Assembly (NCBI GenBank): GCA_036501665.1
Contig: DASXZW010000104.1
Span: 12,902 to 76,901, forward strand
Direction: 5' to 3'
Source of the DNA: Verrucomicrobiia bacterium
GTDB taxonomy: Bacteria; Verrucomicrobiota; Verrucomicrobiia; Limisphaerales; Palsa-1400
Length of the DNA stretch: 64,000 nucleotides
Below the pieces are notes generated by a model. The model ran no database searches and had not been told where the DNA came from. It was given only the letters and a program-made list of their open reading frames with translations. The translations under genes and the position numbers were made by a program. This document shows, one piece after another, positions 23,203-56,098 of the stretch; within the stretch, counting starts at the first letter, position 1, and the number at the start of each line of letters is the position of its first letter.

Positions 23203-23230
23203 GGTAGGGACGCCTCGCCGAGGCGTCCGC
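23203..23230 (+). repeat. REP-like 28-mer GGTAGGGACGCCTCGCCGAGGCGTCCGC (copy 1 of 3)
   Basis: Intergenic between pyc and fabI. A GTAG tetranucleotide is followed by a palindrome GGACGCCTCG-C-CGAGGCGTCC (10-bp arms). It is identical to the copies at 47637 and 51754. Confidence 0.75.
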
Positions 23231-38532: not shown

Positions 38533-38640
38533 TTTTGGTCGGGAGTTGCGGTCCAATACAGACTGAACCCGCTCGAAGGCGAACTAATTCTTGACCCAAT
38601 GAATAATCGCTGAGCCGTTGCAGTGTGATCGTCAACGATG
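38521..38640. repeat. 120-bp direct repeat, copy 1 (decayed antisense copy of the giant subtilase C-terminal-domain coding sequence)
   Basis: Aligns without gaps to 40673..40792. The core 38551-38607 differs at 1 position, and there are about 14 mismatches overall. The minus-strand reading gives IVDDHTATAQRLFIGSRISSPSSGFSLYWTATPDQNYNIEV, versus FIVDDQTATTQPLFIGSRISSPSSGFSLYWTATQGKKYNIEV. Confidence 0.85.
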
Positions 38641-40542: not shown

Positions 40543-43500
40543 TCACTGAGTTGTAATTCGGAAAAAGCGTCCCGGTTCCTGGCTCACCGGTATCGAATCA
40601 GTAAAGGCAGCCGTGTTCGATTCGGCAACAACCGTCGTCACCACAGACCAATTCACCAGGTCGGTGGAGACTTCGATGTTGTATTTTTTCCCTTGCGTTG
40701 CAGTCCAATACAAACTGAACCCGCTCGAAGGCGAACTAATTCTTGACCCAATGAATAATGGCTGAGTCGTTGCAGTTTGATCGTCAACAATGAAGGGTGT
40801 GGTCGTCACCGGCCCAGTGGTAAGTGCCGTCCCCGTGATCGTATAAGATATCGGCGTGGACGCTGTATTGGCGATCGCCAGATACCACGTTCCATTGACG
40901 GACGGCAACGCTGCGCCCTTCCCGACGACAATGGAAAGCGGCGATGTGGTGGTTGTGGAATTGGCATCGTACGAATGTCCCGGAGTTGGAATAGCCCCAA
41001 GTTCCGCGAGCAGTTGCAACCCTCCAACCGCGGACTTATTCGCGAGGGTAAATTGCACCCCCGCCGGGTTATTCAGCACAGTCAACGCGTAAATGATATT
41101 CGTGGTGAAACCCGGTTGGGCAATGCCCGTTTTCACAAAACCCGGCTTTAATTGCATCACATCCAAAGCTCCTGGAGCGCCGCTCGGCCCGTTGGTCGCA
41201 ACTGTCGCAAGGATCGTATAATTCGCGGCCCCCGCAGTGTTGTTGTAAACAGCCAGATACCACGTCGTCGGCCCGGCTGGGGCAGGATTGTTGGTTGTTG
41301 GCGTCGGCAGGGCAAGAGGGGTCGAGTTAGTGGTGACAACAACAAACTGATCAGCCGCGCCGGTCACGCTGCTTGTATAATCATACGAGAGCGGACCGGG
41401 AACAGGCAATCCTGCCCGGGCAAAAAGACTCAATGGTGTGGATGCGCCGAGAATTTGGAAAGTCGCCAGCGTTGTGTTGCCTGGCACCTTGACCGAATAA
41501 TATTCCACGCTGCCACCCGAAATATTTGTCGCCACGGACATTTGATTTGTCAGCGCCCGGACTACGCTGGCATTAGTGCTCACATCGAACTGGACTTCCA
41601 GATTGAAGGTCGCCTGTTTAGGCCCGCTGTTTTGAACGGCCAGGAAATAACGCCTTCCCGGAAGCAACGGCGGAGGCGGCCCTTGCGCAGCCAGCGTATT
41701 GGTGCCGAAGGTTCCCGCCTTAAGACCTGAGATCATGGTTACATCGCCAGGCAAACCTCCCGTCGGCAAAGCGTCCTGATCGAAGAGAAGGTTCAATGGA
41801 TGACTGCCCTTCGAAAGAATATTAGTCGCGAAACTGGCCGTCGGCGGCACATCCACGGCAAAATAAGTAACCGAATCACCCGCCACAAATCCGCTCGTGT
41901 AAAGAACATCATTGCTCAGAACAATCAGACTGACATTTGTGGAAGAAATCGTCGTCTGTAAGTCCCAGCTTAGGAGTGATCCATCACTCGGCAGAGGCGA
42001 ATCGGTGCGCGTGTCCCAAACATCAAGCGTCCAGCATCCCTGCGGATTTTCGCCGATAAACGGCGTGAGCGGTTCCTCGGGCAGAAAGTAATTGTTGAAG
42101 TTGGTCTCGGGAAGCTGAGTAAACTGAATGTCGTCAAAAAGTGTGCTCATTGTATTGCCCGAGAACTCCACCACCACCTGATTATTGGTCGCAATAAAAC
42201 TGTTGGTGAACGCCTGCCAGGGCCCGCTGAAATTCGCTAAAATCTCCGTGTTGGTGGAATATCCGTCCAACTGTACAACAAAGTTGGGCAATAGCGAAAT
42301 GCTGTTGTACTTCCCGGCGCTGCCCGCACTGTAGATGGTTTGTATTTCCACAGGAGACAACGCGCGACCATATAGTGTATCCTCATCAATCTTCCCATCA
42401 AATTTCTGAACGGGAGTAAAGTCATCCATTTCCGTTCCAATAAATACCGGATTGGAATCGTAGCCGATCGTGAGATTCGCTGCTCCCCCCAAGACCTTCG
42501 CTCCATTAAGGTAAAGCGCCTGAGTTTTTGAATCATTGTCAAAGGTATAAGCAGCGTAGTACCAAACACCCGGAACCGGAGTTAAAGGATAGCTCAATTC
42601 AGGCCCGATTCCTGCGATGTTGCAAATAATTCCATTGAGATTTCCTTCTGTCAGCCACATCTGGTATGAGTCAAAATACGAGCTTCCCAAAGTTTTGCTG
42701 AAAAGATTGCCCTCCTGGACGGCAATGGCGCCGTCGAACCAACACTCAATTGTCACACTCGGTGCTCGAAACGCCGTCGAATCCGCAATTTTCACGTATT
42801 GGCCTGAGCCGTCAAAATTAAAAGCGCTGCCCACTTCGCCATCGGCGTATGAAGCTCCGTTTACCAAGGTTCCATTATGCCCGCCTGCAATATCAGTTGT
42901 ATTCCGATCACCAGGCCACCAACCAAGGATTCCCGGTCCTCGCGCCCAATATATCAATTCGTATTTCTTGCCCACGATTGTCGGATAGGTGTTCGTGATC
43001 CGCCCCGTGGTCAAAGCCAGGAAATTATTCCCCGTGTGCGCAAGAGTCGCGTCTTTCACCACGCCGACCTGGTTGGACTCCACTTTCCAGGTTCCTCCAA
43101 CTACTTGTCCAACTGTATAGGTGTTGACAGCAGATCCTTCAAATCCGTCCGCCGTGATGACCGCCGCCGAGGGCGCTGGGGACGCAAATTTTGAGGCAAA
43201 CTTCACCGGTGTCTGGGTCAAACTGGTGTCTTCCGTGAAAACAGTATAAATCAGATTGCTGTCAGCTCGCGATCCCAAGCCCAGATTTTGAGCGGCCAGA
43301 CCCCCGCGATTTTCAAAAAGGAGCACGCTCGTCCCTTGCGGACTTGTCAAGTGAATCGACAGGTCGTCCAAATTCGTATCGCTGATCCTCAACCCGACGC
43401 TCAAGTCCACCACTTGCTGGCCGCTGGTTATGCAGATCTGCGACTGTGTGTGTCCCGCAGTTAACAATGGCGTGGCCGTGTTGTTGCTGAAAGTTTGCAC

Positions 43501-46500
43501 CAGATCGGGCGTCAGACTCTCTTGTATTTGTATGAGCACGTTAAGAGTCACAGGCGTCGTGTCATTAAAGTTGTAAATTCCATAATACCAATTGCCCCCG
43601 CTTAACGGCGGAAACGGTTTGGGTGGATTGGTGCTTAAGCTTAACGAACCTCCAGGCGGATTAATTTTGTTTGTGGTGTAGTCTGAAAAATTCACGTCGT
43701 CGAAGTTGGTCAGGTATATCCCAATCGGGCCGCCTCCCTGGCTTGCGTATGTCGTGAAGATGGTCAGGTTGGTCGCGTCGTTGGGGATGGGCACGTACCC
43801 TTTGTACCACGAGTTGGGCTGCAAAGTGATCGTAAATCCCAGTCCTTGAGGCTGCGGGGTTCCAGTGACGCTGAAAGTTTCCACTTCACCGGTCTGTCCC
43901 AACGCGTTGTCTGCCTCGGTCAACATCCATAATCCCTGCCCGGCTTGCCCAATGAAATTTTTTAAACTTCCCGGTCCGTCGCTCAGCGCGTCTCCTGAAC
44001 TGGCTTGTTCCTGCAAGTCGTCATAGGTAACGCTGAATCCTCCCGGCGCGCCGGAATTGTGGTTGAGGACCGTGCTGACTCCGTTGTGCGTCAGCGTCCC
44101 GTATAAATCGCTCGGATTGCCGTGTTGTATCCCAAGACTCACGGTAACGTCCTGAATTCTCATCGCCGGGTTGAGCGGATCAATCAGGAAAGCGAACACG
44201 AATGCCGGCGCTCCCGCCGCCGCATCCGGGATGAACACCGGCAACGCCGTTCCTGTCGCCGTCACGCTTCCGTTGGGATTCTGAACGCTGAAAGGCGCTT
44301 GCTGGGCTACGGCATAAAATCCAAAATCCGCCGCCTGCTGGTCTTCGGACTTGATGCCGATATACCAGGTTTTGGCAAGGGAGTTGGTCACGAACGTTTC
44401 AGTGCCTCCGCGCCCCACCGATTTGAACGCCTGGAGAACCGCCAGCTTGTCCAATTGCAACAGCTTCGGGTTTGTTGAAACATACATGTCAATATCCGAC
44501 TGAGTATTGCGCGGCGCTGAGAGATTGGGCGGCAAAAAGGTCGCAAAAGCCACGTTAGTCGCAGTGCCGTTGGCGTTGGTGTAAAGCGATAGGTTGGTGA
44601 ACACGAAGAAGTGCCATTGAGTCAGGCTTCCGTTAGTCCCGCCGGTAACGAAGTTCCAAAGCGTCGGTTGATTCGCGCCCACTCTTTCATGCAAGAGCGG
44701 CACACCGCTGCTGACTTGTGTCACCAATGCCGTCGGCGGCACGGACAATACCGAGTTGCTAACCACACTCAACGGAACCGTCGGATCGTCGCCGGAGATC
44801 ACCAGCGCGTAGTCTTGCCCGATAATGTTGGTCCGGGCGGTTACGGCGTTGACGTTCACCCGCGCTCCACCCACCGTCACTGTCAACGGATAAGTCAACG
44901 GCGTAAAGGCCGGGTCGATGTAAATGTTCTGGACATTGTTGACGGCATCCGGCGCGTTCCCAGTGTTGGCTTCGGAGAAGATGTCGCCGCCCAGGAAATC
45001 GTTTCCAATGAAAACGTTGGTTCCAGTATGGTCAGTGACCGTCAAGCTGAGTTGGTTGACCAGCGCAACGCCCGCCGCAGGGTCTCCGGGCGGATCGGTC
45101 CACACCAGACTGATTCGGATTGGCGCGTTGGAGGCTTTTCCGCTAGGGTCGGTGATGATGTAATTTTGGTATTGCCCGGTGGCCAGGGCATTGGCTGGCG
45201 ATTGATCGAAGAACGCCAACGACCGCGCGCTTGCGCCATTGGTAAAGGAGGACGGGATGCTGTTGGGCAGGAAAGGCATTCCCCATCCTTGCTCGTTTGC
45301 GCCCAATGTTTTGACATCAAAGTCGTATTCCAGCCCGATGCTTCGAGATCCATTGATCAAAAGCGCTTTAAGCAACGCCGGGCTGGGCGTGATATTCAAC
45401 CGGTGCTCCAAAAAATCCTGCATCAGCGCCAACACTCCGGAAACCGCCGCCGCCGACATGCTCGTTCCTGATTCGTAACGGTAGGCAGGCTTCAGTATCG
45501 AGTTCATGTTGCTCAAAACTTGGAAGTAATCTCCAGAACTATTGGTTTCCAGCATGAAGATATGAAGGTCATACGTTACCGGCTGGACAACTCCTTTTGC
45601 CGCCGCTACTCCCACGTAAATCGGTCCAGGAACGATTTGGTTCGTTAAGATTACCACATTCGCACCAAGAATGTCGGTCCCGCGAATAGTCACCGGCGGA
45701 TTTTTTCCATCCGCTCTCACGATAAATCCATTGGTGTAACCGGCGGGCGATCCCGAGTTGGTCACGATTTGGATAATAAGCGCTGATCCGTCGTTCTGAT
45801 AGAGGATCGGATAATAGTTGGTCTTGCCGGGAGCGACACTTTGATTGGTTACGGCGTCGTCGGTTACAAGCGTCTCGTTGGTCGGATCCACGTAATTATG
45901 GGACCGGGCAGAGACGATGAAAACGCCTGGGGCGACAACGTCGGGCTTAAACCGTCCCGTAATCCCTTCCACTCCCAATCCGACATTCCCAACGCCGGAA
46001 AAGTAAGTGACCAGATTGCTGTTGTCCGTTTCACCGAGAAACACTTGATTGGTGCTCTGGCCGTCAAAGCTGACTAGATTCGTGAGAAAGCGCGGCGTAT
46101 CGGTCGCCCCCACCGTGATCACGTTCTTGGCCGATCCTGGCGAGTTGATTGTACCTCCCTGTCCATCAACTCCGCTGTCCGTCCCATTCCCGCCGTCGCC
46201 AGAAGCGAAAACAAACAGCAACGGCTGATCTCCTTTCAACATCGGCTGGGCATCGCGCGTGGCTGCATCGTAGCTTGCCGCGTGGATATCGTAGGACTGG
46301 CTGCTGTAACCCCAACTGTTGTTGGAAATCAAATTCGTCGGTCCGAGGTTGGATGAGGCGTTTATCTGCAACTGGTTGTCCGACACAAACGGGCCAGTGA
46401 TCAAATCCAGGTTTTGCACGTACAACGTGGCATTGGTCGCTTTCCCGCGAAAATCTGCTCCCACCACCGAGCCGGGGACCTGGTTGGTCACTTTGCTCGA

Positions 46501-47523
46501 CTGGCTGCCGTTGCCGATGATAATTCCCGCCACGTGTGTGCCGTGCCCATCGTCATCCTCCAATGCTCCCGCAGCGCCCTTGAGCCGGATTGATGCTCCC
46601 GCTCCAGTAAAATCCTTGTGAGTCGAGTCCACTCCGGTGTCGTTCAAACTCACCACGACGTTGGAGCCGGAAAGGTTCAGGTAATCTGGCGTGTTGGTCA
46701 GGGTGTCTGCCGTAACTCCCAATTGCACCCGCGAAATATCGTTGAGCATTCGGCGCCGGGCATAAGTCTCCACTTCCTGCGCCAAAGGCAACTGCGCAAT
46801 CGCCGCCACGCTGTCCGGCGGCGCGCTGACCACCAGGCTCGGTCCGAACGGCCCGCTGTCTTCGCCCACCAACTTTGCGCCCAGATCGGTCAATGCGGCC
46901 AAAGCGGCGTCCCGCTGTCCAGGGAAAGTGGTCACGCTCAAAAGATTGGTTTGCGATTCGCCTTCCACCGCACCGGGAAGCAATGACCCATCGAGCTTGT
47001 AATACGGTTCGTACGGCAAGACCGCCTGGAAAGTCGGGTCTGCCTCCAATGCTTTGGCCTGCTCGGCATCTGCCTTGACCAAACCGGCGTTGTTCGGAAT
47101 GTAACTGACAAACTCCCCGCCGTCCTTCTTCACCGCCTGGTAAAACTCCCGGTCCAACGGTCGGTCAAATTGGACAATGTAACTTCCCGCCGGCCCTTTC
47201 GTCCGCAATTGCGGCGGAATATCCAGATGCAACGGGCGCGTCGTGTCAATCAACGCATTGCGCAGGATGATCGCATGATCGCTGCGCAGAAGCTGCTTCG
47301 CAGTCTGCCGCGTATTGCTCAAATGGTAACTTTTTCGGCCCGCGCTCGCATTGGTCCCGACCGCGTTGATCAATGCCGGATGCGCTGGAGTGGAGGACGA
47401 AGGGGTTGTCGTTTCGCTGTGTTCCTGGTTGAGCCGAACTTTCTCCGCATAATGCCACATCCACCCTCCCGCCGCAAACAGCGCCAGGCTAATGACAAAC
47501 CATCCTCGCGGCTTAAGACTCAT
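40543..47523 (-). CDS. Giant (2326-aa) secreted S8 subtilase with two I9-like propeptide modules, an insert in the catalytic domain, two proprotein-convertase P-domains, a LamG (Laminin_G_3) domain, multiple beta-sandwich modules and a conserved C-terminal domain
   Basis: The ATG at 47523 gives MSLKPRGWFVISLALFAAGGW. Catalytic triad: SLNDTGVDSTH (Asp), DDDGHGTHVAGII (His), NNSWG (Asn) and ESGTSMSAAAVSGVLALM (Ser). P-domain-like segments: VTVSLGIQHGNPSDLYGTLTHNG and LSVGLRISDTNLDDLSIHLTSPQGTSVLLFENRGG. LamG-like: FNFDGSGQYVKIADS...VTIECWF...LYLNGAKV...GKIDEDTLYGRALSPVEIQ. Confidence 0.9.
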   Translation of the reverse strand: MSLKPRGWFVISLALFAAGGWMWHYAEKVRLNQEHSETTTPSSSTPAHPALINAVGTNASAGRKSYHLSNTRQTAKQLLRSDHAIILRNALIDTTRPLHLDIPPQLRTKGPAGSYIVQFDRPLDREFYQAVKKDGGEFVSYIPNNAGLVKADAEQAKALEADPTFQAVLPYEPYYKLDGSLLPGAVEGESQTNLLSVTTFPGQRDAALAALTDLGAKLVGEDSGPFGPSLVVSAPPDSVAAIAQLPLAQEVETYARRRMLNDISRVQLGVTADTLTNTPDYLNLSGSNVVVSLNDTGVDSTHKDFTGAGASIRLKGAAGALEDDDGHGTHVAGIIIGNGSQSSKVTNQVPGSVVGADFRGKATNATLYVQNLDLITGPFVSDNQLQINASSNLGPTNLISNNSWGYSSQSYDIHAASYDAATRDAQPMLKGDQPLLFVFASGDGGNGTDSGVDGQGGTINSPGSAKNVITVGATDTPRFLTNLVSFDGQSTNQVFLGETDNSNLVTYFSGVGNVGLGVEGITGRFKPDVVAPGVFIVSARSHNYVDPTNETLVTDDAVTNQSVAPGKTNYYPILYQNDGSALIIQIVTNSGSPAGYTNGFIVRADGKNPPVTIRGTDILGANVVILTNQIVPGPIYVGVAAAKGVVQPVTYDLHIFMLETNSSGDYFQVLSNMNSILKPAYRYESGTSMSAAAVSGVLALMQDFLEHRLNITPSPALLKALLINGSRSIGLEYDFDVKTLGANEQGWGMPFLPNSIPSSFTNGASARSLAFFDQSPANALATGQYQNYIITDPSGKASNAPIRISLVWTDPPGDPAAGVALVNQLSLTVTDHTGTNVFIGNDFLGGDIFSEANTGNAPDAVNNVQNIYIDPAFTPLTYPLTVTVGGARVNVNAVTARTNIIGQDYALVISGDDPTVPLSVVSNSVLSVPPTALVTQVSSGVPLLHERVGANQPTLWNFVTGGTNGSLTQWHFFVFTNLSLYTNANGTATNVAFATFLPPNLSAPRNTQSDIDMYVSTNPKLLQLDKLAVLQAFKSVGRGGTETFVTNSLAKTWYIGIKSEDQQAADFGFYAVAQQAPFSVQNPNGSVTATGTALPVFIPDAAAGAPAFVFAFLIDPLNPAMRIQDVTVSLGIQHGNPSDLYGTLTHNGVSTVLNHNSGAPGGFSVTYDDLQEQASSGDALSDGPGSLKNFIGQAGQGLWMLTEADNALGQTGEVETFSVTGTPQPQGLGFTITLQPNSWYKGYVPIPNDATNLTIFTTYASQGGGPIGIYLTNFDDVNFSDYTTNKINPPGGSLSLSTNPPKPFPPLSGGNWYYGIYNFNDTTPVTLNVLIQIQESLTPDLVQTFSNNTATPLLTAGHTQSQICITSGQQVVDLSVGLRISDTNLDDLSIHLTSPQGTSVLLFENRGGLAAQNLGLGSRADSNLIYTVFTEDTSLTQTPVKFASKFASPAPSAAVITADGFEGSAVNTYTVGQVVGGTWKVESNQVGVVKDATLAHTGNNFLALTTGRITNTYPTIVGKKYELIYWARGPGILGWWPGDRNTTDIAGGHNGTLVNGASYADGEVGSAFNFDGSGQYVKIADSTAFRAPSVTIECWFDGAIAVQEGNLFSKTLGSSYFDSYQMWLTEGNLNGIICNIAGIGPELSYPLTPVPGVWYYAAYTFDNDSKTQALYLNGAKVLGGAANLTIGYDSNPVFIGTEMDDFTPVQKFDGKIDEDTLYGRALSPVEIQTIYSAGSAGKYNSISLLPNFVVQLDGYSTNTEILANFSGPWQAFTNSFIATNNQVVVEFSGNTMSTLFDDIQFTQLPETNFNNYFLPEEPLTPFIGENPQGCWTLDVWDTRTDSPLPSDGSLLSWDLQTTISSTNVSLIVLSNDVLYTSGFVAGDSVTYFAVDVPPTASFATNILSKGSHPLNLLFDQDALPTGGLPGDVTMISGLKAGTFGTNTLAAQGPPPPLLPGRRYFLAVQNSGPKQATFNLEVQFDVSTNASVVRALTNQMSVATNISGGSVEYYSVKVPGNTTLATFQILGASTPLSLFARAGLPVPGPLSYDYTSSVTGAADQFVVVTTNSTPLALPTPTTNNPAPAGPTTWYLAVYNNTAGAANYTILATVATNGPSGAPGALDVMQLKPGFVKTGIAQPGFTTNIIYALTVLNNPAGVQFTLANKSAVGGLQLLAELGAIPTPGHSYDANSTTTTSPLSIVVGKGAALPSVNGTWYLAIANTASTPISYTITGTALTTGPVTTTPFIVDDQTATTQPLFIGSRISSPSSGFSLYWTATQGKKYNIEVSTDLVNWSVVTTVVAESNTAAFTDSIPVSQEPGRFFRITTQ
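40673..40792. repeat. 120-bp direct repeat, copy 2 (inside the 3' end of the giant subtilase gene)
   Basis: See copy 1. The spacing between copies is 2152 bp. Confidence 0.85.
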
Positions 47524-47636
47524 GTATCTTCCCTCCCTGCGTCTCGATTGAACACGCGAGGTAGCATACCAGAATGCCCGCCCCTTTGCCAGTGAAATTC
47601 CATCTTCGGCACAGGGCAAAGGACCCTAAACTCCGA

Positions 47637-47664
47637 GGTAGGGACGCCTCGCCGAGGCGTCCGC
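47637..47664 (+). repeat. REP-like 28-mer GGTAGGGACGCCTCGCCGAGGCGTCCGC (copy 2 of 3)
   Basis: Lies in the 243-nt gap between the GspK-like stop (47767) and the subtilase start (47523). The flank CCTAAACTCCGA resembles CCTAAATTTCGA at copy 3. Confidence 0.75.
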
Positions 47665-47766
47665 GGACAGATCAACAGGCCATTCCTTTCAGTCAATAAT
47701 AAAATTCGAGAATTGATGTTCAAAGAGTCGATTTCATTTAGGCGCATTTGCCCTGATGTCGGAAGG

Positions 47767-50700
47767 TTAGTTTGCCGGCTCAACATTGTAACTATCAACG
47801 ACCATTCTGGGCGGCCCGTTCGTATGCACCACATGGCAAACTGTGCGGCTCAAAAATTCACCGGTGATCTCGTAATTTGTGCAAAGGTTGTTGTTCGGCG
47901 ACGAAAGATAAAGGTTCTTTGGCCGGAGCGATTGTCCCCATGCGTAAATAACAAATTGCGGCTCGCCCACCTTCAGCAATCCCATGATCTGCTGCGGAAT
48001 GCGCTCCACTACCTGGTCGGAAACATCCGTCGCAGTGATATTGGTCAGGAAAGGCGACTTGACTGTGAGCGCCGGCGCGGCAAGGACCTGGCCGATCTTG
48101 TGGAACAACCCGTTGGCGTTCGTGGAACGAAACGCGTTTATCCCGTTCGTGGGATCATCCACGAATTGATACACAGCAGTTGGATCAATCGGGACGCCCC
48201 CGTTGACGTTGGTCAATGCGATGACCCCCCCCAAAGCCGCCGCCCACGCGCCATCGTTCGTTTGATTGACAGAAAGCAGTCCGCGCGCGGAATTCGCGCT
48301 CAGCGCAGCTGTAAACACGTCCGCCAAAGCCCAATCGTTGGTCGGGTAAGTGTCCGGTTGCTGATTTCCCGTAGAGTTCCACGGCGAACTCGTCCAGGTG
48401 GACCACGCGTTTCCAGGCAACGACTCCGCAACAGGGTTGTCCGACTTGAAATAAACCGTCTGCCACGGCGTTCCGCGATGAACGCGCCCAAGCCAGCCTG
48501 TGCTTGGGAATTTGTTGGCCGGAAATTGCCACATGTCCGCCGACGTTATACCGGGGTCCTTGAGCAGCATGTCAGTATCCGAGGTTCCAGTTCGCAACCA
48601 CGGATCGTAACGCTTGCTGATGCCGCCCACGCTGTTTGTCATGGGAAGCAACAAATACGCTCCAACTCCGGTGCCCGAATAAATCTCCACGCCGTCCGAC
48701 TGTGGCGCCGGCGGCGGCGGCGGCCATTTCAAATCGCCAACTGTGTAATGCACCAACGGATCATTGGCGACCCAACTGAGACTTTGCTCGAGCACGTTGC
48801 TGGGGCTGTTGCCCGGCGAGAATGTCCACCCTCCTTGATGCTGTTGGGAGCCATTGCCGAAAAGGCTGTTGGCGAAAACCTGATCGCTAATTTCTGCCTG
48901 GCCAATTTGGTTAATCATCCCTAAAGACATTGGCGAACCCGGAAACGAGGTCGCGTTGCCAATAGCCCACACGCTGCTTGCGAAGGAACTTCCTGCCCCT
49001 GGAAGCCCCCCGGAGCTTTGTTGCAATATTGAATTCGTAATGGAAACGGCGCTCCCAAAAGGCCCAAGGTTTACGTAATCGAGCAGAGCAGTACCCGGAC
49101 TTGGGGGGCCGTCAAACAGAGCATACACGACATGATTTGTAACGGTCAGGGTCCAATTATGCAGCGGCCAGGACGTCTGATTGGTGTCCTGCGGCAGGAA
49201 CGAATTGCTCGAAATCACATTATTCGTGAAAAATATCAGCCGCCGCTGCGATTCAGAAAAATAGCAAGGCGGAAGGCCAACGAGATTAATTGAGTTCAAC
49301 GTCACAAAGCCCTTGGTGCTGGCATTCGGGATGCCACTCCATGCGGGCCAATTGATTAACTTGCCGTTGTTCGGGCTTACTGTGGGATCATAAACGTAGG
49401 AAAAATTCGTAACGTAGCCGTAAGAAAAAAGGCTTTGATCATTTGTCAATTCTATGGTGACGTAGTTTGAAATGTAGTATGAGGTTCCTCCACCGGCTGC
49501 GGAGGACCCGGAGTATTGACTCGTATAGGGATTCCAGGCGCCGATTCCAAAACTGTTTGAAACGGCCATGACATAAAACTGGTTCGTGAACTGCGGAGCG
49601 CGATTGGTATCCGGTTGCCCCTCCCCGTTGGCGAATCTGGAGAAAAGAACTTTCCGCGTATATAAAATCCGATTGTTAAAGGCATATTGGTAAAATTGAG
49701 GAGTGCCCTTCTCCGCGGATACGACCCACGGTATGCCTTCAACATTGAAACCCAATGATCCGCGCTTTGCAAAGTCGTTGATGAACCCCTTAACAACGTT
49801 GTTGCTGTTAAGCTGGTAGTAGATCTGCCTCATCTGGTTCAGCGCGACACTTGCGTTGGTGACGTCGTTGGTCCATCCGACGATGTCGATGCCGTCGTTA
49901 ATCGTATTAGGATTGACACGGGCAAATAGCGGACGGAAAACAAATGGATGTCGCACTGGCGGCAACGGGTTTTTGGCTGGGTAAGTGTTTGTGATCGTTG
50001 AACTGTAAATATTCGCCGCCACTTGCAGAATCCGATGGACAGCCTGGTTGTATTGGATTCCGGGGTTATTAAATCGGAAAATAGGAATGTTGGTCACGCC
50101 GAAATAACCAGTCAGAAGCCCCGACTGTTGATAAACCCCGTTGACAGGGACATAATTGGTAAATGTGAACCCTTGCGAACGCAGCAGCAATTCCGCCGCG
50201 TTCGTAAAAAATCCCAGCGGCGTCCAATCCACAAAATTTGTCGGCATCGGGGTGTAAGGCCCCCTCTGGATTTGAGTGGTGTTGTCAAAATTGACGTTGA
50301 CCTTCGTCCGCAAGGTCGGCTGCCCCGCGTCGTTATAAACCCAGACGCCGTATTCCGGTTCAGACCCCGTGCCGATATTCTGCAACAACCGCTCGAAAGC
50401 ATACCGGTCCTCAGTATTGGTGTGAAACCCCGCCCTCAACATCCGGTTTGTAAACGCCACGGAAGTCTTGGCTGGATTAAACAAATCCTGCGGATCATAA
50501 AACATGTTCAAGGAATAACTGCCCGGCCATGGGAGACTCGGCGCGATAATTCGCGTTTGAATGTTGTTTGTAGGGTCAAACGGAGGCTCCGTATTTGCTG
50601 TCAATAAATAAGCATCGATTCCGCGTTGATCAAAGCTCGGGTAGAGACTGGGAAGGAGTCCGTCCAACGACCCGAATCCAATATACTTCGCGGTTTTATA

Positions 50701-51978
50701 ACCATTGTCAGGCCAGTTCCCATACCTAAAATGTAAAATCGCCTCTGCGTCATCAAAGGCAAAGCCCGTATTGGCCCTGCTGCTTGCGCCAAATGGAGGA
50801 TAATACCGGTATTGCAGCGACGGTTTTACGACGTAATAAGGATCGTCAAGAAGGAGTCCGGGCTGATAAAAATCTGGAGAGACAACATCCAGCAATGCGG
50901 CAAGGTTCAGTTCATACGAGGCTATGCCCTGGTCTCGCGCAAATCCATCAGTCTCCGTGAACGGCAACGCATTATTCAGGGCGTTGACATAGTCGCCCTT
51001 TGCGTAGTTGTGAATGTAGTTAAAATCCAGCGTCTTTCCAATCGGAAGCACCATGTAGGCATAGCGCCCGACGAAAATATTCGTCGCGGAATGGCGGTTC
51101 AAAGGATCGCGCAAAACCCCGATCCATTCCGGCTCGCCGTTCATATAATTTACCTGGGCAAATCCCGTTGGAAAATCAAAGTTTGCGGGAGCCTGCAAAC
51201 CGTTCTCCATGATGTAAGGCAAAACCCCGTTAGTCTCAAAACGTCCGTTGCGATTGACGTCCACCCAAAATCGAAAATCGCTGTTATTGGGAAAAGCAGG
51301 ATTGGTGACCACGAACACCGGCGGACGCGGGTCATAGTAAAGATTGGCAATGTTTTGCGCCCAGCCAGCAGGGTCCTTCTGCATGTTGAAAGGCGGCGCG
51401 TTAAACTGGGAGATCGTATAAGAATCGTAATTGACGTTCGTTGTGTCTTTGTTCCCCTTGTTGTAGCCGAACGGGCTGATATAATTCCGCGAAACCATGT
51501 AATCATAACTCAGCGCGTCGCCCCGCGCCTCCATCTGCGCAACGATCTCCGCCTGCGCGCGGTTCAACGCCGCATCGCTCATGTTACGCGCGCTGTCGGC
51601 ATCCAGCGTCGAAGTCACCGCCGCCCGGTCGCGCCGCGACATGGACAAAAATGCCACAGCCAAAAACGTAATGGCCGACAACATCAACAACGTGATGACA
51701 AGGGCCACCCCACGCTCCGAACGTTGAGATGAAGCGCCGCTCCTAAATTTCGAGGTAGGGACGCCTCGCCGAGGCGTCCGCAAACGGCCCAAAGTCAGAA
51801 TAGAGAGGGATGCTCTCGCGGTTGCTCCGCCCTCCGAAAAATTGCGGGGCACTCCAGGACGCTGTGATTCATGCGGTTGATTTACCGCGCATTCACAGCG
51901 TCCCGGAGCGCGCCAGATCCCTGGCGCTTTGGGATTGCCCCTCCCCCACCTCCTGGGCGGTTTTACTGAAAAATTCAT
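47767..51978 (-). CDS. Giant GspK-like minor pseudopilin (1314-1403 aa depending on start)
   Basis: Prepilin-like segment ERG|VALVITLLMLSAITFLAVAFL lacks Glu at +5, as in canonical GspK. It is the last gene in a G-H-I-J-K-ordered set. The ATG at 51978 makes an ATGA overlap with the upstream gene, but it puts a 90-aa Arg-rich leader containing a REP copy (51754-51781) before the TM. An alternative in-frame GTG lies at 51708. Confidence 0.7.
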   Translation of the reverse strand: MNFSVKPPRRWGRGNPKAPGIWRAPGRCECAVNQPHESQRPGVPRNFSEGGATARASLSILTLGRLRTPRRGVPTSKFRSGASSQRSERGVALVITLLMLSAITFLAVAFLSMSRRDRAAVTSTLDADSARNMSDAALNRAQAEIVAQMEARGDALSYDYMVSRNYISPFGYNKGNKDTTNVNYDSYTISQFNAPPFNMQKDPAGWAQNIANLYYDPRPPVFVVTNPAFPNNSDFRFWVDVNRNGRFETNGVLPYIMENGLQAPANFDFPTGFAQVNYMNGEPEWIGVLRDPLNRHSATNIFVGRYAYMVLPIGKTLDFNYIHNYAKGDYVNALNNALPFTETDGFARDQGIASYELNLAALLDVVSPDFYQPGLLLDDPYYVVKPSLQYRYYPPFGASSRANTGFAFDDAEAILHFRYGNWPDNGYKTAKYIGFGSLDGLLPSLYPSFDQRGIDAYLLTANTEPPFDPTNNIQTRIIAPSLPWPGSYSLNMFYDPQDLFNPAKTSVAFTNRMLRAGFHTNTEDRYAFERLLQNIGTGSEPEYGVWVYNDAGQPTLRTKVNVNFDNTTQIQRGPYTPMPTNFVDWTPLGFFTNAAELLLRSQGFTFTNYVPVNGVYQQSGLLTGYFGVTNIPIFRFNNPGIQYNQAVHRILQVAANIYSSTITNTYPAKNPLPPVRHPFVFRPLFARVNPNTINDGIDIVGWTNDVTNASVALNQMRQIYYQLNSNNVVKGFINDFAKRGSLGFNVEGIPWVVSAEKGTPQFYQYAFNNRILYTRKVLFSRFANGEGQPDTNRAPQFTNQFYVMAVSNSFGIGAWNPYTSQYSGSSAAGGGTSYYISNYVTIELTNDQSLFSYGYVTNFSYVYDPTVSPNNGKLINWPAWSGIPNASTKGFVTLNSINLVGLPPCYFSESQRRLIFFTNNVISSNSFLPQDTNQTSWPLHNWTLTVTNHVVYALFDGPPSPGTALLDYVNLGPFGSAVSITNSILQQSSGGLPGAGSSFASSVWAIGNATSFPGSPMSLGMINQIGQAEISDQVFANSLFGNGSQQHQGGWTFSPGNSPSNVLEQSLSWVANDPLVHYTVGDLKWPPPPPAPQSDGVEIYSGTGVGAYLLLPMTNSVGGISKRYDPWLRTGTSDTDMLLKDPGITSADMWQFPANKFPSTGWLGRVHRGTPWQTVYFKSDNPVAESLPGNAWSTWTSSPWNSTGNQQPDTYPTNDWALADVFTAALSANSARGLLSVNQTNDGAWAAALGGVIALTNVNGGVPIDPTAVYQFVDDPTNGINAFRSTNANGLFHKIGQVLAAPALTVKSPFLTNITATDVSDQVVERIPQQIMGLLKVGEPQFVIYAWGQSLRPKNLYLSSPNNNLCTNYEITGEFLSRTVCHVVHTNGPPRMVVDSYNVEPAN
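51754..51781 (+). repeat. REP-like 28-mer GGTAGGGACGCCTCGCCGAGGCGTCCGC (copy 3 of 3), inside the 5' end of the longest GspK-like ORF
   Basis: Identical 28-mer. On the minus strand it is read in frame as ...LRTPRRGVPTSKF.... Confidence 0.75.
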
Positions 51979-52895
51979 CGTGCCACCACCGGAATGCTGA
52001 CCCGGCGACGGAAAATTTCCATCGTGGTCGGCGCGTTAGTACCCATGTAACGAAGAAAAGCTGGCGAAGGACTCGGAATGCTTGCCAGGGCCCGCGCCCG
52101 AATCAAAGCGTCCGGCTCCAAAATGGCCAACTCGACATCCACCGCATTCGGCAGAGTGTTGATCTCCCCATCGACATTGTTCGGCAAGCGAAACCCATTG
52201 GTGGACAATGGATAGGAAAACGATCCTTGAGGCTCCCAATCTCCATAATATGCTTCAACACCCGGCTCTCTGCCATTTTGGTCATAAGCAAAAAGCTTCA
52301 AGCTGACGACTCCGTCCGCCACTCGATGCCAGTAAGCCATATTTGTAAAATTCTGAGTGGCCACAGAGGTCTCAAACGGAACGAAAAGATTATTGGTCAG
52401 TAGGTAAGGAGCGCTGAAATTGGTTTCGAAGCGATAGAGCGTTCCCACAGTGGCGCCGGAATTGGGAACCAGGTTCTGCACCGCGTAACCGACTCCCATC
52501 CACATGGTGTTGGTGTGTTCCAGAATGTATATGGCATCGACCTGGTTCGTGCGAAACGCCAGTGGAGGGTTAAATTGCGCGTTTGACTGCACACTGTTTC
52601 CCGACCAGGACCAGTAAAGGTTCGTGATGCCGGGGTTATTTCCGTCGCTCATGTGGCGCATGTCCGCCGCAATCATGTCCATGACCGTTCGTCCTGCGTC
52701 AGTGACCGTCGCGGCCTTGATGCCGGTCTTGAAAGCCTTTTGCGTCTGAATAAACATCGCCGTCAAGCCCAGCACGATAAAGCTCAGCATCGCCGTCGAA
52801 ACGAGCATTTCCAGAATTGTCAAACCGCGAATACGAAGCCGTTTTCCTGCGGCGTCGCTTGGCCTCTCAACGTATTGTGGCTTTACTCGCTTCAT
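51975..52895 (-). CDS. GspJ-like prepilin-type protein (306 aa)
   Basis: The ATG at 52895 gives MKRVKPQYVERPSDAAGKRLRIRG|LTILEMLVSTAMLSFIVLGL, with Gly at -1 and Glu at +5. ATGA overlaps at both ends. Confidence 0.65.
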   Translation of the reverse strand: MKRVKPQYVERPSDAAGKRLRIRGLTILEMLVSTAMLSFIVLGLTAMFIQTQKAFKTGIKAATVTDAGRTVMDMIAADMRHMSDGNNPGITNLYWSWSGNSVQSNAQFNPPLAFRTNQVDAIYILEHTNTMWMGVGYAVQNLVPNSGATVGTLYRFETNFSAPYLLTNNLFVPFETSVATQNFTNMAYWHRVADGVVSLKLFAYDQNGREPGVEAYYGDWEPQGSFSYPLSTNGFRLPNNVDGEINTLPNAVDVELAILEPDALIRARALASIPSPSPAFLRYMGTNAPTTMEIFRRRVSIPVVAR

Positions 52896-53860
52896 CTGAG
52901 GAATTGGTAGCCTTGAGTCAAGTAGGACTGCGGCTGGAAAAACCACAGTTGCTGCCCGTTGATATGATAAGGAGCACCCGAAGGCAACGTCGCGAACTGA
53001 ACGCCTGACGACACCGTCGTTCTGTAAGTCTGGTGATTCGGTCCCACGGTATAAGTGCCGTTCCCCGTATCAATAACCGGCCAGCTAAAACGCATCTTGA
53101 CGTCAAAACTGCTGTACGCCAGCGACCCGACCGCGTAGGGAAGGTTCGTTATCGTCTGTGGCGTCAACGTAAAAGAGGGAAATGGATTTGCTTCCAGATA
53201 TCGATAATAACGTGTCTGCACGTCAGGACTATTCGTCGCTTCGCCTCGGTTTAGATAAAATTGGTAATTGGTGCTGTCCGGCGCAAAATCGACGAGCGGC
53301 ACTATCTCAATATCCATCTGATACCGGAATGCAGTTAATCGGTTCGCTCCGTTTTGCTGCACTGCCGCCCCGCTCAACGAACGCACGATGGCCCGGGTTA
53401 TTGTAAAATTGCTCAAAGTGACGAAGGAAGGTTCAGGAGTGGAGAGCAACCCCAATATCTCCAGGCCAACGCCAAAATTAGTAAAAGTCGCGGTCGTAAC
53501 CGTCTTAATTGTGCCGCTCGCGACGTAATTGCTGATGATCGAAATGCTCTCCACGTAATTCGTCAGAAAATCCAGGCCCGAAAACGGAAGAGTATCATTT
53601 GCGCCGTTGTTTATAACGGTCAGGTTCGTGCTCCCATTCCGAATTGCATCGAGGAAAAACGGCGCATCCTGGCTGATCGTTGTGTCCTCGCGATTATCCT
53701 TTTGCACACTCATTCCCGCCGGAAGAATGCCAATGACCGCCACCAGGGCGAAACCGATTACACCGATGGCGATGGCTATCTCGACCATGGTGAATGCTCG
53801 TTCGCCCTGGCGGCGCTCTTCCTTGGCGTCTGCTAACAGGTTGTGCGGATAAAGGTTCAT
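52892..53860 (-). CDS. GspI-like prepilin-type protein (322 aa)
   Basis: The ATG at 53860 gives MNLYPHNLLADAKEERRQGERA|FTMVEIAIAIGVIGFALVAVIG. The longer track ORF (to 54265) overlaps the upstream gene, so I rejected it. Confidence 0.6.
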   Translation of the reverse strand: MNLYPHNLLADAKEERRQGERAFTMVEIAIAIGVIGFALVAVIGILPAGMSVQKDNREDTTISQDAPFFLDAIRNGSTNLTVINNGANDTLPFSGLDFLTNYVESISIISNYVASGTIKTVTTATFTNFGVGLEILGLLSTPEPSFVTLSNFTITRAIVRSLSGAAVQQNGANRLTAFRYQMDIEIVPLVDFAPDSTNYQFYLNRGEATNSPDVQTRYYRYLEANPFPSFTLTPQTITNLPYAVGSLAYSSFDVKMRFSWPVIDTGNGTYTVGPNHQTYRTTVSSGVQFATLPSGAPYHINGQQLWFFQPQSYLTQGYQFLR

Positions 53861-54807
53861 TGAAATTGGTTCTGCACAATCGTGGGCCGCGCCGTCAGCC
53901 AATCGATCTTGATCATACACGGATTGTTCGATTCGTTCCCAGGCGGCGCTTCTGTAATGAGCGGCGTCGGCGGCTGGTAAGGCCCGGTGGCAGTTTCCGG
54001 ATAAAAAATGCTTCCCCGAGTCAGCGTAATGTATTGGTTCGTGGATGTCAGCAGCGTCCCTTGCGGCGTAAAACCAATGTAAGGCAGGTTCATGTAAGTG
54101 CCCGCGTTGATGGACGGAAATGGAAACGAATTGCTGGCAAAGCCATACACATAATCGGCATTCGTTGTATTGTTTATTGTATTGGTTGTGCGAATCGTCG
54201 CGCCGCGAAATTGTGAGTTGAATTGCATGGGCCAGATGAAAACGCCGCTGGGCAGCGTCTGCCATTCCGTCAGATAATGTGGATAATGTTGGCCGGGTTG
54301 GTCGCCAACTGTTCGGTCGCTTATGATTGCATACGATACAAATTGATGTTCCAACAAGTTTGTTAGTTGCGGCGTGAGCTGCGCCTTTTCCTGGATGACA
54401 CTATTAAAATCACCCGAATAAGAAGGAACGAAAACCATATATACCGTGGAACGGTTCACCAGCGCCCGGTTGCGCGCCCGCGCCACGTCGTCCATCAATT
54501 GCCGTGTCGCCGCAGTAACGCCGTTGGCGCGGTTAAATCCGCCCACATGAGGCAGCGCCATCGCCGCGATAAACCCGATGATCGCCATGACCACCAGCAG
54601 TTCCAACAACGTGAACGCGCTTAACCTCCCCAACCGCCGATCTCCCCGCAAACCACGCCCGCGCAAGCCAAACCCGCGTCGCGCTTCTGGAAAACTTGTC
54701 CGGCGCGCCTTCCGCATCCCAACAATCATCGGCTGCGCCCCCGGCTGCTCAAGCCACTCGACAACGAGGCGCTTGATAACGGGTTTATTTTTTGCAGTGA
54801 CGCGCAT
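53857..54807 (-). CDS. GspH/FimT-like prepilin-type protein (up to 316 aa)
   Basis: ...GRLSA|FTLLELLVVMAIIGFIAAMALP, followed by TAATRQLMDDVARARNRALVNRSTVYMVF, which matches the GspH/FimT-like pattern. It has a long Arg/Gly-rich leader, and the start could also be at 54729 or 54717. Confidence 0.65.
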   Translation of the reverse strand: MRVTAKNKPVIKRLVVEWLEQPGAQPMIVGMRKARRTSFPEARRGFGLRGRGLRGDRRLGRLSAFTLLELLVVMAIIGFIAAMALPHVGGFNRANGVTAATRQLMDDVARARNRALVNRSTVYMVFVPSYSGDFNSVIQEKAQLTPQLTNLLEHQFVSYAIISDRTVGDQPGQHYPHYLTEWQTLPSGVFIWPMQFNSQFRGATIRTTNTINNTTNADYVYGFASNSFPFPSINAGTYMNLPYIGFTPQGTLLTSTNQYITLTRGSIFYPETATGPYQPPTPLITEAPPGNESNNPCMIKIDWLTARPTIVQNQFQ

Positions 54808-54815
54808 GAAAGTGG

Positions 54816-55499
54816 TTACCAGTTTCCGTTCGTTTCAATCACAGCCTGGCCGCTCTTTGTACCGACTTGAAATTCCGCCCACAAATCATAGCTGTTCTGG
54901 TTGTGGCGCCTCGGACTGGAAGCGTCATAATGCCAGAAATTTGGTTGGGTCTTGACCAATTGCGCGGGCACCAGCAGGCCCAGCACCGCTTGCGGCCCGG
55001 TCGCGCTGGTTCCGGGGTAATTCGTGTAATCCTGCTTTTTCGGTGCGGGTCTGAAGAAATTCTGCGGCTCAGAAGAGTCGGCATTGGCAATGCCATTGCG
55101 GTTCAGATACTTGGCAAATGGCCCTCCAGCGCTCAGCGAAATAAGATCGCCGGTAAAAATGATCGCCTGGGTGGAGTTCGTATTAGTAACCCCGGTCAAT
55201 TCATATATTAAGGCATTTGAAGCGGTAAGGCTCTCGTAAGTTTGCGGTGTAACGGCAGGAACCAATCCGGCAAGGTTTCCATTGTCCGGCGGATAAAAAT
55301 TCAACTTCGCCTGATAATTATCGATCATCGTCTGGAGCTTTTCCCGCTCCGCCTTGACCGCCGTTTCCATTTTGATCTTCGCCGCATATTGCCCGCCCGT
55401 AAGGATCATCGCCGCGATGATCCCCATGATCGCGATGACCGTAAGGATTTCGATCAGCGTAAACGCCTCTTGCCCCGATTTTGTATGATTAAGCTTCAT
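54816..55499 (-). CDS. GspG-like major pseudopilin (227 aa)
   Basis: MKLNHTKSGQEA|FTLIEILTVIAIMGIIAAMIL, then KAEREKLQTMIDNYQAKLNFYPPDN, which resembles the GspG-type 'Y..d.G.YP' segment. The start is separated from the brnA-like stop by 1 nt. Confidence 0.75.
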   Translation of the reverse strand: MKLNHTKSGQEAFTLIEILTVIAIMGIIAAMILTGGQYAAKIKMETAVKAEREKLQTMIDNYQAKLNFYPPDNGNLAGLVPAVTPQTYESLTASNALIYELTGVTNTNSTQAIIFTGDLISLSAGGPFAKYLNRNGIANADSSEPQNFFRPAPKKQDYTNYPGTSATGPQAVLGLLVPAQLVKTQPNFWHYDASSPRRHNQNSYDLWAEFQVGTKSGQAVIETNGNW

Positions 55500-55500
55500 G

Positions 55501-55800
55501 CTATCCGTTTTGAGCCCGCGCGCCCGACTTCTGTTCGCGCATTTCCTGTTCCATCCGTTCGCTCAGCCATTGCTTGATCATGCTTTGATAATTTAAAAAC
55601 CGTGTTCTGGCCAGCCGCTTAATTCGTGCCAACATTCGCGGATCCATCCGAAGACTGATCGCCACTGAGTCCGCCAGCTCATTTGACATCACCGACGACT
55701 CCATCAGCCGGACCTCAATTCGGTTCTCAGCCCAGAACGCCGCCTCGGATTCTTCGCGGTCGAACAGCGGAACTTCTTCCCAATTTGCGATGGCATTCAT
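55501..55800 (-). CDS. brnA: BrnA-like (CopG/RHH) antitoxin
   Basis: VAISLRMDPRMLARIKRLARTRFLNYQSMIKQWLSERME matches the BrnA_antitoxin pattern (isiRld...lk..A...g.gYQtlik.wl.erl). It lies downstream of the DUF497 gene, as in BrnTA. Confidence 0.7.
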   Translation of the reverse strand: MNAIANWEEVPLFDREESEAAFWAENRIEVRLMESSVMSNELADSVAISLRMDPRMLARIKRLARTRFLNYQSMIKQWLSERMEQEMREQKSGARAQNG

Positions 55801-55810
55801 GGTATTGAAA

Positions 55811-56098
55811 CTATTGCGCCAGCGTTTGATTTAATTTTCGTTGATAGAGATATTTCTCTTCAACCTCAAAAGGACGCGCGAAAATCACGCGCGCCTGCTT
55901 GCCGTTCGTGCGGTAAACGGTAAAAATCCCCGTCCCGTCGGACGCTGTCCCCAAGTTAAAAAACCGAGCCTGAACCGCAAACCGGGGCGAATCCGGCAAC
56001 AAACGCACAGCAAAAGGATCCTCAAAAGACTCTTCAATCGCCTGCAAAGTCAGCGTCCGAGCTAAATTGAACGGCGGATTGTTCCAGTCAAATTCCAT
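55811..56098 (-). CDS. brnT: BrnT-like (DUF497) toxin
   Basis: MEFDWNNPPFNLA...IEESFEDPFAVRLLPD...ARFFNLGTASDGTGIFTVYRTNGKQARVIFARPFEVEEKYLY follows the DUF497 layout (FEWD..., F.DP, ...R...iG..., iRiIsAR.a...E...Y). Confidence 0.7.
   Translation of the reverse strand: MEFDWNNPPFNLARTLTLQAIEESFEDPFAVRLLPDSPRFAVQARFFNLGTASDGTGIFTVYRTNGKQARVIFARPFEVEEKYLYQRKLNQTLAQ

Follow-up and report, generated by a model that had tools for sequence, protein, structure and literature searches.

A giant subtilase encoded directly behind a conserved set of pilin-like genes in Verrucomicrobia is a candidate passenger of a type IV filament

A stretch of 64,000 nucleotides from a Verrucomicrobiia bacterium of the Limisphaerales (assembly GCA_036501665.1, contig DASXZW010000104.1, positions 12,902 to 76,901 of the forward strand; the whole stretch is called the window here) encodes an S8-family subtilase of 2326 residues directly behind a row of pilin-like genes on the same strand. 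An earlier note on this DNA, made from the letters alone, had singled out the subtilase as the candidate cargo or partner of a pseudopilus. Our findings now show that the pilin-subtilase operon is conserved in subdivision 3 of the Verrucomicrobia (Pedosphaera/Limisphaerales) from soil and freshwater. We consider it likely that export of the subtilase physically depends on a type IV filament, be it as a protein carried at the tip or as a released cargo. The narrower proposition that a type IV filament operon has the subtilase gene as its last structural gene, the product being carried at the tip in the slot of PilY1 or MshQ, appears to us evenly balanced. All functional statements made below derive from sequence, synteny and predicted structure.

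Results

Conserved linkage between the pilin-like genes and the subtilase

Linkage was followed from both ends. In the subtilase-anchored set, 80 genome loci with 10-kb flanks were searched with the five pilin-like proteins of the window, named G, D, B, C and A. The A gene lies directly upstream of the subtilase gene and on the same strand in 67 of the 70 loci that were informative upstream, and the order G-D-B-C-A is kept wherever the flank reaches. Subtilase identities across the loci with kept synteny range from 36 to 65%, and the three exceptions to cassette linkage all come from one metagenome-assembled genome (MAG). The reciprocal, A-anchored set comprises 80 metagenome loci at 30-71% identity; here the subtilase is the next gene after A in every locus with at least 1 kb of downstream sequence (52/52), at a median gap of about 180 nt. 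Conserved synteny in related genomes had been named in the earlier note as the test of a partnership between subtilase and pilin set; the synteny is strongly kept in both directions, and at the genomic level the two are linked. The divergence of each module protein follows that of the subtilase (Spearman 0.60-0.77, which is partly phylogeny), and the genes flanking the module are less conserved than the module itself. In the window, the module consists of the following genes, all on the minus strand:

55811..56098: BrnT-like small protein, 95 aa, first conserved gene of the module (weak Pfam BrnT_toxin match)
55501..55800: BrnA/CopG-type ribbon-helix-helix protein, 99 aa, second conserved gene (Pfam CopG_antitoxin)
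54816..55499: G, GspG/major-pilin-like prepilin, 227 aa (N_methyl / TIGR02532 above cut-off; QEAFTLIEIL)
53857..54807: D, minor pilin in the GspH/FimU position, 316 aa as called (N_methyl at residues 64-85)
52892..53860: B, minor pilin in the GspI/PilV position, 322 aa (prepilin motif ERAFTMVEIA)
51975..52895: C, minor pilin in the GspJ/PilW position, 306 aa (prepilin motif IRGLTILEML)
47767..51708: A, giant pilin-like protein in the GspK/PilX position, 1313 aa as called (N-terminus GVALVITLLMLS; gene order)
40543..47523, stop codon included: S8 subtilase with lectin-like and beta-sandwich modules, 2326 aa

The subtilase family comprises 1423 matches (E<=1e-10), among them full-length relatives of as little as about 37% identity. 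All reside in Verrucomicrobiota MAGs save for a few contigs with implausible bin names. Seven contigs (L001, L012, L029, L034, L036, L060 and L061) were deposited in Baltobacteraceae, Saccharimonadales, Bifidobacterium, Acidoferrum and Limnocylindria bins and are probably mis-binned. One MAG, CAVWZG01 (MFD09286.bin.1.251), harbours five giant-subtilase paralogues (L002, L008, L013, L020 and L038), of which L020 alone is linked to a cassette; L002, L013 and L038 lack one in a full 10-kb upstream flank, and the upstream flank of L008 ends at the contig end. The family-type C-terminal ending is kept in L002, L013 and L008, and the open reading frame (ORF) of L038 ends early, at 1401 aa. Downstream of the subtilase, uvrA is found in 14 of the subtilase-anchored loci at a median distance of 1.7 kb; in the window this slot instead holds an FGE-sulfatase/FKBP gene and an RND (resistance-nodulation-division) efflux operon.

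Filament machinery beside the module in related genomes

In 13 of the 30 loci with at least 3 kb of upstream sequence, pilB-pilT-pilB-pilC directly precede the module. The first ATPase is PilB-like and has an MshEN domain; PilT is next, and then come another ATPase, which resembles PilB/GspE, and PilC/GspF. The PilT proteins of related loci reach 445 bits on TIGR01420 (cut-off 319), and genes with T2SSE and T2SSF domains adjoin. In the loci L162 (8244-14147) and L163 (8239-14148) pilT stands between two PilB/GspE-type ATPase genes, both with the MshEN domain, and pilC follows; in L116 (655-4813) the flank shows the downstream ATPase alone. The presence of two ATPases suggests a doubly powered filament. 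MshEN domains bind cyclic di-GMP, and the filament of the related genomes is possibly regulated by this messenger.

The pilin set, which the earlier note had called a pseudopilin set, probably does not form the pseudopilus of a type II secretion system (T2SS). Related genomes place pilT, pilB and pilC beside the set, an adjacency which argues for a retractile filament of the type IVa or MSHA (mannose-sensitive haemagglutinin) kind. Genes for GspC, GspL, GspM or GspD were not seen in the readable flanks of the related loci.

Architecture of the subtilase

The open frame of the subtilase gene extends over 40543..47619 on the minus strand. The ATG at 47523 is preceded by a GGAGGG Shine-Dalgarno sequence, and gene calls by the Joint Genome Institute (JGI) for the 198-kb source contig place the start there as well. 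The 2326-aa translation is identical to database protein P0001 (NCBI name 'S8 family serine peptidase [Verrucomicrobiae bacterium]'). Its gene product and boundaries are accordingly those given in the earlier note, as borne out by ORF, database identity and Pfam. From the N-terminus onwards, the following regions were delineated (minus strand throughout):

44860..46695: catalytic region, residues ~277-888 (Pfam Peptidase_S8, PDB profile search and triad)
43864..44154: P_proprotein domain 1, residues 1124-1220 (Pfam, E 2e-4 on the segment)
43300..43407: P_proprotein domain 2, residues 1373-1408, N-terminal half matched (Pfam)
42340..42813: Laminin_G_3 / ConA-like lectin fold, residues 1571-1728 (Pfam, E 7e-16)
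40546..40755: C-terminal beta-sandwich of ~70 aa, ending ...GRFFRITTQ (AlphaFold2 model, terminal motif)

Pfam Peptidase_S8 (PF00082) matches residues 286-550 and 679-732 (E 3e-34; 118.9 bits, cut-off 21.8), so that the domain search which the earlier note had called for backs the S8 assignment above the gathering score. The catalytic residues had been placed exactly, with Asp295 at 46639-46641, His327 at 46543-46545 and Ser688 at 45460-45462, and lie in the family motifs NDTGVD, HGTHVAG and GTSMSAA, respectively. The triad is invariant in 113/113 subtilase homologues, and the oxyanion-hole Asn at 401/402 is kept (N401/N402) in ~94-95% of the 113 sequences. Since the triad is both intact and invariant, the subtilase is presumably an active serine protease. 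A ~130-aa insertion (551-678) interrupts the S8 domain, which is followed by a C-terminal beta-domain of the KP-43 type. A PDB search with a profile of 16 homologues retrieved the KP-43 protease (1wmd, E 3e-51) and SubHal (5fax, E 2e-50), and the best-aligned stretch covers residues 677-888, that is, the Ser688 region and the beta-domain behind it.

An N-terminal hydrophobic segment spans residues 8-23, as expected from the signal/anchor assigned earlier, and is conserved among homologues (W8, S12, W23). Two propeptide modules of the I9 kind had also been proposed; no match to Inhibitor_I9 was obtained in the subtilase (E<=1) or in 16 homologues (E<=0.1), and the proposed DUF642 module likewise went unmatched at the same thresholds in the same sequences. 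The two P-domain-like modules, by contrast, had been located in ranges that agree with the Pfam P_proprotein matches, to which a weak third match at residues 1791-1856 may be added. Their placement is not that of kexin or furin, because ~390 residues separate P_proprotein from the catalytic domain, and the latter is directly followed by the KP-43-type domain. The Laminin_G_3 domain of the earlier note was recovered by Pfam. An NCBIfam match to the fimbrial protein TafC was discarded as merely reflecting the LamG fold shared with a haloarchaeal Tat-fimbria subunit.

An AlphaFold2 (AF2) model of residues 1127-2326 (mean pLDDT, the predicted local distance difference test, 76) depicts a chain of all-beta, beta-sandwich modules, and Foldseek related this model to lectin-like jelly-rolls, namely BoNT Hc-N and AbnA domain 4 (TM score 0.72 on the target). 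In the model the C-terminal domain has six strands and sits behind a linker whose pLDDT is <50. Throughout the subtilase family, the terminal motif [RK][FY][FY]R[LIV]xxxP is kept. Conservation of the C-terminal domain, as asserted earlier, therefore stands, and its specificity to the subtilase does not. The same ~60-aa beta-sandwich type terminates an SBBP beta-propeller repeat protein elsewhere in the window (12024-13622, plus strand), which ends ...NRFYYTVPQ. A profile built from the two window copies detects the module in 3999 representative clusters, many of them with 2-8 tandem copies, and its match to Pfam F5_F8_type_C_2 is weak and below the gathering score. These copies rule out the domain as a docking or sorting signal peculiar to the subtilase.

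The pilin-like proteins

Among the pilin-like proteins, G and D exceed the cut-offs of TIGR02532/PF07963, and the prepilin signals of B and C were recognised by inspection; the motif is also present in orthologues. More distant loci contain a second, GspG-like major-type pilin gene. The genes upstream of the subtilase are tightly packed, with gaps of 1-10 nt and overlaps of 4 nt between D and B and between B and C (JGI gene calls). Scores on T2SS equivalog models remain below cut-off and stem from the N-terminal helices alone (GspK 15 bits vs 130; GspG 28.5 vs 88.9). D shows weak N-terminal matches to GspH and to Verru_Chthon cassette protein D, and A to TIGR02600 and GspK. Membership in the Verru_Chthon cassette (TIGR02596/98/99/600) was considered and ruled out, because N-terminal helices alone match and the scores fall short of the cut-offs (A 31/332, C 17/257, B 20/51 and D 40/70 bits).

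A is the last of the minor pilin cluster, and its N-terminus GVALVITLLMLS lacks Glu5, as in GspK and PilX. The A family numbers 1241 proteins, in which no Pfam domain was found (31 members scanned). The AF2 model of a homologue, P0239 (predicted template modelling score 0.76), combines a long N-terminal helix with three long C-terminal strands. The label 'GspK-like' given to A earlier derives from gene order and N-terminal helix, and finds no backing in Pfam, PDB-sequence or Foldseek searches. The start of A may also be read differently. The ATG at 51978, ATGA-coupled to and overlapping the stop of the J-like gene C, represents the ancestral start; if used, it would add a leader of ~90 aa, encoded by the ~270 nt between this ATG and the pilin N-terminus. 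The JGI start is a GTG at 51708 with GGAG before it.

The gap between A and the subtilase gene

A and the subtilase gene are separated by 243 nt (47524-47766), a distance confirmed from the earlier note along with its single repetitive extragenic palindromic (REP) hairpin. Two REP copies lie at the module's 3' genes:

47642..47662: REP hairpin GGACGCCTCGGCGAGGCGTCC in the gap, a 21-nt palindrome with a 9-bp G+C stem and no U-tract after it
51759..51779: REP hairpin in the stretch from C to the pilin N-terminus of A, which repeats the 21-nt palindrome exactly and lies in frame within the 5' extension of A (ORF 47767-51978)

The G+C-rich element occurs three times in the window (23208-23228, 47642-47662 and 51759-51779), with none expected by chance. 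It is not kept in related loci, where the gap ranges from 13 to 1652 nt. A role of the REP as terminator or boundary was ruled out by the missing U-tract, the copy inside the cassette and the orthologous loci without REP. The fold of the whole intergenic region is unremarkable (z = -1.46). A weak promoter-like match (47723-47696, 9/12) is present in the gap; the region as a whole has 18 such matches compared with 10.9 (sd 3.6) in shuffled sequence, about two standard deviations above.

A BrnT/BrnA-like pair at the head of the operon

The two small genes at the head of the operon belong to the pilin-subtilase module and are its best-conserved part. They occupy the same position and strand in 75/76 loci whose sequence extends 750 nt or more upstream of the first pilin, with a median identity of 73% for the BrnT-like and 71% for the BrnA-like protein as compared to 31-41% for the pilins, A and the subtilase; across the family the pair is 60-88% identical and the pilins 25-50%. 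This fixed position and identity sets the pair apart from mobile toxin-antitoxin pairs, and the 75 loci rule out a stray toxin-antitoxin insertion that marks the edge of the operon. The BrnA-like protein scores 38 bits on CopG_antitoxin PF12441 (cut-off 28). The BrnT-like protein reaches E 0.0016 on BrnT_toxin, with 19 bits against a cut-off of 34.5, and has no NCBIfam match. In the window the BrnA-like stop and the start of G are 1 nt apart. We regard the pair as a separate lead; it possibly represents a toxin-antitoxin module recruited as an operon component.

Other observations in the window

A partial duplicate of the subtilase 3' region (~38500-38640, minus strand; ~140 nt, ~88% identical), which covers the first half of the C-terminal domain, sits between the AcrB stop and the FGE-sulfatase/FKBP gene, where JGI calls a 103-aa ORF. 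A ~27-nt sequence just past the subtilase stop recurs just before this duplicate, as though a rearrangement around the convergent FGE/FKBP gene had left a scar. An IS200/Y1-type transposase gene (10542-11525, plus strand) is located where the GC skew switches sign (10-14 kb).

Discussion

How might the subtilase reach the cell exterior?

From an abstract perspective, the arrangement may be explained by export of the subtilase on a filament, by export through one, or by a relationship that does not involve export by the filament at all. Filament-dependent export is likely because of the invariant gene position, the adjacency of pilB, pilT and pilC in relatives, and the extracellular-type architecture of the subtilase. 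Known filaments offer a precedent for the first of these possibilities. In type IVa systems the large non-pilin protein PilC/PilY1 attaches to the K pilin through strand donation, its final ~10-12 residues forming the added beta-strand (PMC13533445; bioRxiv 10.64898/2026.09.18.752573), and MshQ, the product of the gene directly behind mshDOP, is predicted to do likewise (PMC13533445; bioRxiv 10.64898/2026.09.18.752573). GspK of T2SS, ComGG and CpaL supply their own strand (PMC13533445; bioRxiv 10.64898/2026.09.18.752573). Minor pilin genes followed by a large non-pilin gene constitute the documented layout of pilVWXY1 and mshDOPQ (PMC13533445).

We envision a scenario whereby one putative operon encodes, in order, the BrnT-like and BrnA-like proteins, either one or two pilins of the major type, four minor pilins ordered H-I-J-K, of which the K protein has 1300 aa, and the subtilase. 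The preprotein would pass the inner membrane by means of its N-terminal signal/anchor and might then associate in the periplasm with an H-I-J-K priming complex, as the invariant synteny suggests. It would cross the outer membrane on the tip of a filament assembled by PilB/PilC-type machinery, the genes for which adjoin the module in relatives. Given the order of domains, the N-terminal catalytic domain may come to lie distally, with the P-domain, lectin-like and beta-sandwich modules as its stalk, and would there act as a serine protease if the intact triad is a guide. Carriage at the tip is slightly favoured because of the slot, the presence of pilT and the polarity of the domains. The lectin-like, all-beta modular C-terminal half is adhesin-like and thus in keeping with this scenario, and so, in our count, is the conserved extreme C-terminus, which is also kept in paralogues without a cassette. 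A far-reaching version, which we regard as speculative and rather doubtful as a whole, posits a retractile type IV pilus whose tip is an active ~250-kDa subtilase on a lectin-bearing stalk rather than an adhesin, so that the cell could bind and cut extracellular proteins or glycoproteins at a distance and retract the enzyme, all under the control of a domesticated BrnT/BrnA-like pair.

Several observations weigh against carriage at the tip. In the AF2 monomer, the final strand RFFRIT is not a free tail and sits in the small beta-sandwich of the subtilase itself, a domain type that is generic (~4000 representative clusters). The PilY1/PilC beta-propeller (PF05567 / IPR008707) is absent from the Pfam and NCBIfam matches of the subtilase, and no MshQ-named family appears among its NCBIfam matches at E<=0.1, although it is unconfirmed that NCBIfam holds an MshQ model. 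The model of the A homologue ends in its own three long beta-strands, which would correspond to the cis arrangement of T2SS GspK; A may accordingly not need a donated strand. A GspK fold for A received no support, since PDB and Pfam profile searches and Foldseek against the PDB (E<=0.001) returned nothing; in Foldseek the homologue model was searched whole, and a split pilin domain could have been missed. Finally, no filament machinery genes lie within the 64-kb window, the flanks being composed of housekeeping and efflux genes.

Alternatively, the subtilase might be released. A short T2SS-like pseudopilus, or a piston pilus of the sort that secretes TcpF and CofJ in type IVb systems or the proteases of Dichelobacter, would push the folded protein through a secretin, thereby delivering a free exoprotease with carbohydrate-binding modules. 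We consider this possible rather than probable, and it remains close to carriage at the tip because the structural models show no sign of strand donation: the last subtilase strand is buried in its own domain and A resembles T2SS GspK in its modelled cis strand. Consistently, the pilins score best, if below cut-off, on GspG, GspH and GspK models, and the adjacent ATPase nearly attains the cut-off of the GspE model (623 of 630 bits). Subtilases are moreover classic secreted enzymes, the closest solved relatives being secreted Bacillus proteases, and five paralogues in one genome with a single cassette-linked member resemble several cargos sharing one machine. Released cargo is harder to reconcile with pilT in the same locus, a retraction ATPase normally absent from T2SS, with readable flanks devoid of GspC/L/M/D, and with the general experience that T2SS cargo genes are not normally fixed behind gspK across such divergence.

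Readings without filament-dependent export are much less likely. The subtilase might be a co-regulated neighbour that merely shares expression with the pilins, for instance in a surface-colonisation regulon under the BrnA-like repressor, and that leaves the cell by another route. We deem this improbable: the C-terminal domain type common to unrelated proteins and the weak promoter-like match in the A-subtilase gap (47723-47696) would fit, but order, strand and adjacency are invariant in ~120 loci at 30-40% protein identity, a stronger bond than co-regulation usually produces, and genes outside the module are less conserved. Most improbable of all is a subtilase that remains tethered to the inner membrane and whose periplasmic task is the processing or turnover of the pilins or of the giant K-like protein, for while its unusually conserved N-terminal segment (W8, S12, W23) fits an uncleaved anchor and its co-occurrence with the pilins is strict, ~1600 residues of P-domain, lectin-like and beta-sandwich modules typify surface or extracellular proteins, known type IV filaments need the aspartic prepilin peptidase alone, and the idea is without precedent.

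Relation to known systems

How does the module compare with characterised machines? Like PilY1/PilC, the subtilase is a large non-pilin protein with a Sec-type N-terminus encoded right behind H-I-J-K minor pilins, and it combines a variable N-terminal functional domain with a conserved C-terminus; pilT, pilB and pilC form part of both systems, and paralogues can share one pilin set. It differs in having no beta-propeller and, in the model, no free C-terminal plug. Its N-terminal domain is an S8 protease and not an adhesin, and the K-like pilin has 1300 aa and seemingly supplies its own last strand. The mshBACDOPQ locus of Vibrio cholerae also has two major-type pilins, minor pilins and a last gene for a non-pilin protein of >1000 aa, MshQ, which carries a ConA/LamG-like module as does the subtilase; the assembly ATPases of the related loci share the MshEN domain with MSHA. 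Homology to MshQ is nevertheless undetectable, MshQ has no protease domain, and a BrnT/BrnA-like pair heads the operon here.

With T2SS the module shares the order G-H-I-J-K, a K protein without Glu5 and probably with a last strand in cis, and a large hydrolase gene beside secretion genes, as for SslE/YghJ by T2SS-beta of E. coli or pullulanase with pul. Unlike in T2SS, pilT is present, GspC/L/M/D were not seen, the pilins are two to four times the usual size, and the hydrolase gene is fixed directly behind the K gene and not beside the whole operon. Type IV filaments that export a protein encoded with, or dependent on, their pilins are represented by TcpF and CofJ and by the subtilases of Dichelobacter nodosus; these cargos are small or encoded elsewhere, CofJ binds through an N-terminal peptide, and there is no homology. 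The Verru_Chthon cassette likewise consists of four pilin-like genes (D-B-C-A) with an A protein of ~1300 aa in Verrucomicrobia, but it is a different family and its model names record no link to a subtilase. Finally, the catalytic domain and the following beta-domain align with KP-43 and SubHal at E 1e-50 to 1e-51, yet those are free secreted enzymes of ~430 aa, whereas the present protein has an insertion of 130 aa, an N-terminal region of 280 aa and a further 1400 residues at the C-terminal side.

A protease in the place of an adhesin

The earlier note had held that pilins paired with a single giant protease are not a described arrangement. In part this needs correction, as the layout of pilins followed by a large gene is already known; an active protease in this slot does appear to be new. 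The literature on Verrucomicrobia pilins, subtilisins and PilY1 yielded nothing relevant on the arrangement, and the invariant protease in the slot of a tip protein, the K pilin of 1300 aa and the fixed BrnT/BrnA-like pair each appear new. In the current view, type IV filament tips are carriers of adhesins (PilY1/PilC, MshQ, CpaL) or pistons for unlinked cargo. If our scenario is true, a catalytically intact giant protease in the tip slot across a whole order would extend what type IV filaments deliver. The module could also serve as a natural test case for the beta-strand-addition model of 2026, for its K-like pilin seems self-complete and yet has a large partner gene retained behind its own. 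Moreover, the scenario, if true, would provide a first way into the function of the numerous pilin-like cassettes of the Verrucomicrobia, bacteria that degrade polymers and abound in soils, peat and lakes.

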